20,098 bases of DNA from a virus. Taxonomy: Duplodnaviria > Heunggongvirae > Uroviricota > Caudoviricetes. The stretch spans positions 1 through 20,098 of the IMG/VR virus record IMGVR_UViG_2534681674_000022; one strand, given 5' to 3'. Every line of letters starts with the position of its first letter. Position 1 is the stretch's first letter. Made by a program: the position numbers and the translations under genes. Below the pieces are notes generated by a model. That model was not told where the DNA came from and ran no database searches. It saw nothing but the letters and a program-made list of their open reading frames with translations. Shown piece by piece: positions 19,732 to 20,098 of the stretch.

Positions 19732-20098
19732 ACTCCCTGAGAAAGAGGTAAACAGGATGACTAAAAATACTCGTTTTTCCCCCGAGGTCCGTCAACGGGC
19801 AGTTCGTATGGTTCTGGAAAGTCAGGGCGAATATGACTCACAATGGGCGGCAATTTGTTCCATTGCCCCAAAGATTGGCTGTACACCAGAGACTCTGCGT
19901 GTGTGGGTTCGTCAGCATGAGCGGGATACCGGGAGTGGTGATGGTGGACTCACCACCGCTGAACGTCAGCGTCTGAAAGAGCTGGAACGTGAAAATCGTG
20001 AACTGCGCCGCAGTAACGATATCCTTCGCCAGGCTTCCGCTTATTTTGCGAAGGCGGAGTTCGACCGCCTCTGGAAAAATAATGCCGCTGCTGGATAA
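19703..20098 (+). mobile_element. IS629-like element, copy 4 (3' part beyond window end)
   Basis: Left end TGAACCGCCCCGGGAATCC at 19703, inserted inside the helicase gene. Confidence 0.9.
19757..20098 (+). CDS. IS629 OrfA variant, extended by 6 codons because of a 1-bp deletion in the A-run at the OrfA/OrfB junction
   Basis: CTGGAAAAATAATG (5 A) here versus CTGGAAAAAATAATG (6 A) in copies 1-3; the ORF ends [13 protein letters not shown] instead of LWKK-stop. Confidence 0.8.

Follow-up and report, generated by a model that had tools for sequence, protein, structure and literature searches.

At the orfA/orfB junction of one copy of the insertion sequence IS629 (copy 4), a run of six A's is written with five, which raises the question of whether this copy can still produce a transposase, and whether the base is missing in the cell at all. 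The window, by which we mean the whole stretch of 20,098 nt that was analysed, is positions 1 to 20098 of the draft contig AEZJ02000017.1 (GCA_000194215.2). It ends within copy 4, and the rest of this copy was read from locus L006, which matches the window base for base and extends downstream.

A standard IS629 element deposited with a shortened A-run

The IS629 copies of the window and their junction runs are the following.

1-1229, plus strand: IS629 copy 1, a 1.3-kb repeat clipped by the window start
292..297, plus strand: A6 run of copy 1 (reference state)
2576-3884, plus strand: IS629 copy 2, a 1.3-kb repeat
2948..2953, plus strand: A6 run of copy 2 (reference state)
9578-10887, minus strand: IS629 copy 3, a 1.3-kb repeat, fully intact
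10510..10515, minus strand: A6 run of copy 3 (reference state in the fully intact copy)
19703..20098, plus strand: IS629 copy 4, first 396 nt in the window; the whole copy has 1309 nt and ends at contig position 21011
19703..19727, plus strand: left terminal inverted repeat of copy 4, read from the sequence
20075..20079, plus strand: A5 run of copy 4 (A6 in copies 1-3), in the unpaired stretch that links stems 1 and 2 of the frameshift signal

Copy 4 is a standard IS629 element of the IS3 family. Its termini (TGAACCGCCCCGGG... on the left, ...CCCGGGGCGGTTCA on the right) are of the 5'-TG...CA-3' type, as in IS629, and the first 14 nt of the left end recur exactly, as their reverse complement, at the right end. 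Copies annotated by PGAP as 'IS3-like element IS1203 family transposase' are 99-100% identical to it, and the members of its cluster carry the name IS629; IS3411, IS1203 and IS629 are presumably isoforms. When the 1309 nt of the copy, including the downstream sequence from L006, are aligned with copies 2 and 3, the missing A is the sole indel relative to copy 3, and the final 360 nt belong to a second sequence type that is common to copy 1. The junction of copy 4 is GGAAAAAT, with A5 at 20075-20079, and that of copies 1-3 is GGAAAAAAT, so that the orfA/orfB junction reads CTCTGG-AAAAA-TAATGCC in the former and CTCTGG-AAAAAA-TAATGCC in the latter. Direct reading hence confirms the original prediction that copy 4 is one A short of the other three. 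Chance is not at issue here, as repeat copies are compared that differ at this place by one base.

Reading frames of copy 4

The consequences of the shortened run concern three features of the copy.

19757..20098, plus strand: orfA of copy 4 (by translation; Pfam HTH_Tnp_1; NCBIfam transpos_IS3 profile positions 1-87)
20080..20082, plus strand: TAA closing the -1 frame of copy 4, which reads CTG GAA AAA TAA
20082..20098 in the window and on to contig position 20969, plus strand: orfB of copy 4, 295 aa, start ATG at 20082-20084

In the intact copies, orfA encodes 108 aa and ends ...LWKK-TAA, with the ATG of orfB overlapping that stop. Relative to orfA, the orfB gene is in -1 in copies 1-3, with an open overlap, and in +1 in copy 4. 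OrfA of copy 4 (ATG at 19757) has 113 aa and ends ...LWKNNAAAG*, its TAA being at 20096-20098. The orfB of this copy is uninterrupted, with the Pfam domains HTH_21, rve and rve_3, a match to transpos_IS3 positions 93-369 (314 bits), and the D, D and E of the DDE core motifs present in its translation. An orfB in the +1 frame marks copy 4 as a defective or miscalled member of IS629 and not as a member of another family.

The TAA lies 11 codons beyond the shift site at 20044-20048, and a ribosome that had shifted there would terminate. A compensating change further downstream had been named as the point to check, and the whole 1309-nt element was read for it: no compensating indel is present in the remainder of copy 4 (contig sequence from L006). 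Since the TAA at 20080-20082 closes the -1 frame, orfB is in +1 and nothing compensates for this, no -1 slip can yield the fusion from the copy as written, and copy 4 in its deposited form is predicted to be unable to produce OrfAB through a -1 shift. In this respect the earlier reading of the junction, that with five A's the -1 frame meets a TAA, orfB falls into +1 and no OrfAB is to be expected, holds.

The frameshift signal

Where the ribosome shifts is a separate matter, and the features that bear on it lie upstream of the A-run.

20038..20098 in the window (full extent 20038-20153), plus strand: 5' part of the ALIL frameshift pseudoknot (Rfam RF01497)
20044..20048, plus strand: U_UUU_G slippery tetramer, the annotated -1 shift site (0-frame UAU UUU GCG)
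20053..20069, plus strand: ALIL stem-loop 1, GGCGG AGUUCGA CCGCC (Rfam structure line and MFE fold)

Programmed -1 frameshifting in IS629, IS1203 and IS3411 of the IS3 family is, according to what Mazauric et al. reportedly found in 2008, stimulated by the ALIL pseudoknot, and Chen and Hu (J Biol Chem 2006) are said to have described two shift sites in IS629, TTTTG and AAAAT. The A6 run had been regarded by the original prediction as the sole place for a -1 slip, and this part of it has to be given up: the -1 frame of the intact copies has 22 open codons before the orfA stop, and within this stretch U_UUU_G precedes the ALIL pseudoknot. The U_UUU tetramer (20044-20047) is in frame, with a spacer of 5 nt to stem 1. 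RF01497 scores 120.9 bits in copies 1-3; in copy 4 the full match (L006 10521-10636, model positions 1-117) scores 115.1 bits and the part inside the window 50.7 bits, the gathering score being 50. Loop 1 (GUUCGA) is predicted to be able to pair with UCGGAC within the internal loop of stem 2. In the Rfam consensus, UAUUUUGC directly 5' of stem 1 is conserved, with the slippery tetramer in upper case, and the region of the A-run, part of the linker from stem 1 to stem 2, is unconserved and unpaired. The 404-aa product of a slip at U_UUU_G exactly matches NCBI proteins named 'IS3 family transposase' from 165 and 137 contigs (two allele types), and the product of a slip on the A-run (...LWKK-IMPLL...) is absent from the protein collection that holds the U_UUU_G product. 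The shift site of IS629 is thus annotated as the U_UUU_G ahead of the ALIL pseudoknot and not as the A-run. Six slippery tetramers are clearly above background, A_AA.A being the least effective of them, and U_UU.U has been found to be effective upstream of a pseudoknot (PMC4066793).

Whichever site is used, the fusion is lost, since the deletion precedes neither of them; any judgement on whether a copy makes transposase needs to take in everything between 20044 and the start of orfB. It was also considered that the deletion weakens the stimulatory RNA, and this was rejected because the deletion is in an unpaired linker, because the MFE fold of the junction RNA is the same with A5 or A6 at an unchanged energy of -42.2 kcal/mol, and because linkers of anything from 44 to 104 nt occur within the ALIL family.

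In the MFE fold of the free RNA, the slippery UUUU (20044-20047) pairs with the A-run (20075-20078) and extends stem 1, with equal energy for A5 and A6.

In an intact IS629, a ribosome translating orfA would slip by -1 at U_UUU_G, aided by the ALIL pseudoknot just 3' of it, and the shifted ribosome would then cross the linker into orfB and produce the 404-aa OrfAB transposase. In copy 4 as deposited, which is one A short in this linker, it would meet the TAA after 11 codons with orfB left in +1, and the copy as written would make an OrfA with a tail longer by 5 aa, perhaps OrfB, and no transposase. The missing A is itself most likely a miscall of homopolymer length, in a draft assembly that appears to drop single bases inside repeated IS copies. 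In this chain it is established how the frames of copy 4 lie and where the stop falls, that the stimulator is intact and that nothing compensates; that the base is an error we infer from the error pattern described below.

Insertion site and neighbourhood

Copy 4 has no 3-bp target-site duplication (flanks ...ACAT / IS / AGCA...); copy 2 has one (GTT/GTT). The right flank of copy 4 (L006 11495 onward) corresponds to DNA that in ETEC6335 lies 2.66 kb further on, in the traT region. This displacement relative to ETEC6335 points to a deletion adjacent to the IS, and indicates that the 3' part of the TOTE primase-helicase gene, encoding its C-terminus, has probably been removed together with neighbouring IS remnants. 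Both the arrangement of the window and the insertion of copy 4 are absent from 5,426 complete E. coli genomes. Strains 111 and 112 carry an IS629 with A6 at a distance of 3 bp from the copy 4 site, which is an independent insertion. Twelve other contigs encode the truncated TOTE protein, all of them short, and the four that were examined (L007-L010) end at most about 90 nt from the left end of the IS; short-read assemblies of this lineage break at IS ends.

Copy 3 (9578-10887, with the flank from 10888) is likewise without a duplication (CAG / GTT) and joins a fragment of a prophage late region to the TOTE/YfjI island, exactly at the place that in ETEC6335 is taken by the 3' end of the integrase gene of the island. 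The prophage fragment, 5.7 kb long, is flanked by copies 2 and 3 in inverted orientation. The fragment (6023-8765, minus strand) contains three tRNA genes at 6975-7223, which are Arg, Arg and Ile by the annotation of a close relative, and matches to STnc100 (6023-6199), C4 antisense RNA (8577-8664) and isrK (8689-8765). There are no toxin genes between the tRNA genes and the SASA esterase gene of the fragment.

Is the missing A an assembly error?

That the base might be miscalled was left unweighed when the deletion was first described, and the evidence favours a miscall. The missing A of copy 4 is probably a homopolymer error of the draft assembly and no mutation in the cell, to judge from the way in which indels are distributed over this assembly. 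GCA_000194215.2 contains a second A5 copy of IS629, found by a look-up of a 96-aa OrfA, on contig AEZJ02000004.1 (L017 2896-4202). This copy also has G4 shortened to G3 and A5 to A4 (IS positions 682-688), which break its orfB into pieces of 127 and 172 aa, and its SNP background differs from that of copy 4 (position 69 and the type of the 3' end), so that the two A5 copies are not explained by a single event spread by transposition. In copy 2, an A3 at 3579-3581 stands where copy 3 and the AEZJ02000004.1 copy have A4, and orfB is cut to 239 aa (2956-3675); among all gene positions on record, this 239-aa OrfB is found in this contig only, and no complete genome matches the A3 variant exactly over its full length. 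Copy 4 is closely followed by an ISEc8 element (IS66 family) with two 1-nt deletions relative to SS17, SS52 and strain 111, and its transposase has 419 aa, compared with 512 aa in other strains.

Contig positions 22283 and 23595 (L006 12766 and 14078): single-base deletions in ISEc8

Taken together, the repeats (five IS629 copies and one ISEc8, about 8.6 kb) have 7 single-base deletions and 0 insertions, with 5 of the 7 in homopolymers, and same-type IS629 copies differ by about 1 non-mosaic substitution. The unique DNA between copies 3 and 4 (9,237 nt) has 0 deletions and 0 insertions when compared with NKOY01000083 (L007), an independent assembly of the same lineage. For deletions in repeats versus unique DNA, Fisher's test gives p = 0.006, and 0.012 if the IS629 copies alone are taken. 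Insertions are lacking, substitutions are scarce, and the deletions keep to repeats and mostly to homopolymers; such a pattern is typical of miscalls in repeats that cannot be polished, and not of mutation. Other assemblies that call A5 give a similar picture: four of them (L016, L019, L021 and L005) have lost additional bases from homopolymers or short repeats of the A5 copy, and another (L018) has a non-homopolymer insertion in its copy.

Several points speak against an artefact. Copy 4 is otherwise clean, with this single indel; the assembly is accurate in unique DNA, and a SNP specific to copy 4 (19771) is confirmed by an independent assembly; and the deletions in ISEc8, called by comparison with other strains, may be true strain differences.

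Two run lengths in unique DNA vary between sources: at 11806 the window has T8, and ETEC6335 and the Logan assembly of SRR070454 have T7, and at 15682 the window has A7 and ETEC6335 A8. NKOY01000083 agrees with the window at both positions. The junctions of copies 3 and 4 are also present in SRR070454, which may derive from the strain behind GCA_000194215.2.

A5 and A7 junctions in other genomes

The main alternative is that the deletion is real and that copy 4 has lost its activity recently, its transposase gene having become a frameshift pseudogene and the element non-autonomous. Such alleles are known from other genomes. An exact search with a 63-nt query finds A5 in 4 of 5,567 complete E. 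coli records, which hold about 22,000 junction copies in total, and the four records are pRM8385-1, SS17, SS52 and PNUSAE008512. A5 alleles are annotated as pseudogenes under the name 'IS3 family transposase, frameshifted' in SS17 (SS17_RS06340), PNUSAE008512 (N5913_RS00495) and pRM8385-1 (I3Q_RS30590). At one locus common to SS17, SS52 and PNUSAE008512, which are O157:H7 genomes assembled independently of each other, the A5 is clean, and a real A5 allele thus exists and the change from A6 to A5 happens in nature. The A5 copy on the RM8385 plasmid, like copy 4, has a SNP background other than that of the O157 allele, and as insertion sites and SNP backgrounds differ, the A5 events are independent, which means that the event recurs. 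Copy 4 itself would fit a genuine loss in that it has no further indel and retains orfB and both ends, in an assembly (GCA_000194215.2) of which the unique DNA is accurate. The IS629 OrfB, which is intact here, is moreover reported in a passage of PMC5771124, citing Chen and Hu 2006, to reduce transposition. On the other side, the base rate of A5 is very low (about 4 in 5,567 records), and single-base deletions in at least 3 of the 5 IS629 copies as well as in ISEc8 of one and the same assembly, with almost no substitutions, fit miscalls better than mutation. A real deletion is the less likely reading.

If the deletion were real, copy 4 could be moved in trans by an intact copy such as copy 3, as both of its ends are kept. 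It would provide the longer-tailed OrfA, a truncated shift product and possibly OrfB, but no transposase; and the OrfA and perhaps OrfB that it still supplied are proteins that both damp transposition in IS3-family elements. Trans-mobilisation of a dead copy was also considered for SS17, which has two identical A5 copies, and was rejected, as the second of these loci goes back to an old insertion, with A6 in about 198 other genomes.

Runs of seven A's are found as well. A7 alleles, in which orfA and orfB are fused in frame and annotated as a single CDS of 404 aa, occur exactly in 3 records, and if real they would be copies with a constitutive transposase. The A7 loci (L022, L023 and L024) are on the chromosome and a plasmid of PNUSAE019785 and on a plasmid of 2014C-3050. 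One A7 is at an old O157 insertion that has A6 in about 198 genomes, and another lies between frameshifted neighbour genes, for which reasons these A7 are likely to be miscalls. At the old O157 insertion, which is common to about 199 genomes, SS17 alone has A5 and PNUSAE019785 has A7, and singleton calls of run length therefore occur in both directions.

The A7 fusions are also what could be put forward for a functional A-run, in which a copy with A5 makes OrfAB by a +1 slip of tRNA-Lys on AAA-AAU or by an A added by RNA polymerase, or in which the run is a phase-variable switch. Upstream of orfB, the +1 frame of copy 4 indeed has 36 open codons, and the normal fusion minus one Lys (...LWK-IMPLL...) would be restored by a +1 slip on A5. 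But no +1 stimulator is evident (the A site has no slow or stop codon), the pseudoknot is placed for the U_UUU_G site and not for the A-run, and transcriptional slippage is known from runs much longer than five A's (reviewed in PMC5009743). A5 and A7 each account for about 0.1% of records or fewer, whereas a contingency locus would vary far more often, and several of the A5 and A7 calls are in visibly error-prone assemblies. All of this makes a functional run highly improbable. A heritable control with three states, in which A5 would give no transposase and the repressors OrfA and OrfB only, A6 a frameshift-limited and A7 a constitutive, fused transposase, is just as far-fetched; were it true, copies like copy 4 would act as resident dampers of IS629 activity in heavily IS-loaded STEC genomes.

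Significance of the missing base

If the base is miscalled, which is the more likely case, copy 4 is a normal IS629; if the cell does lack it, the copy joins the many inactive IS elements that annotation pipelines already recognise as such. Either reading is ordinary and carries little biological weight. Single-base differences in run length among IS copies of draft or long-read assemblies should not be taken for regulatory variants without reads that are anchored in the flanks.

Comparison with known systems

Nothing in copy 4 is new: frameshifted IS629 copies are already known and routinely annotated, and the miscalling of homopolymers in repeats is a familiar artefact. With the elements IS629, IS1203 and IS3411 of the IS3 family, copy 4 shares the length (1309-1310 nt), the ends, the HTH_Tnp_1 domain of orfA and the rve/DDE domain of orfB, as well as a full ALIL match, with the U_UUU_G 5 nt ahead of its stem 1. 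It differs from them by one A fewer in the linker, by which the -1 frame is closed and orfB is in +1. The A5 'frameshifted' pseudogenes of RefSeq have the identical 63-nt junction in an element of 1309 nt without any other indel, like copy 4, but they are at other insertion sites and on other SNP backgrounds, and whereas the O157 allele rests on three assemblies, copy 4 rests on one draft. The indels of this assembly resemble the homopolymer errors of draft and long-read assemblies, which are concentrated in repeats that short reads cannot polish: all seven in its IS copies are single-base deletions, five of them in homopolymers, and the adjoining unique DNA has none. The logic of the junction is also the same as in the OrfA-OrfAB paradigm of IS911 and IS3, in which OrfA is made from the 0 frame, the transposase is made via a -1 shift only, and an indel in the overlap either abolishes or fixes the fusion. 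The shift signals differ, as IS911 and IS3 have A_AAA_AAG or A_AAG slippery sites, whereas IS629 has a U_UUU tetramer followed by an apical loop-internal loop pseudoknot.
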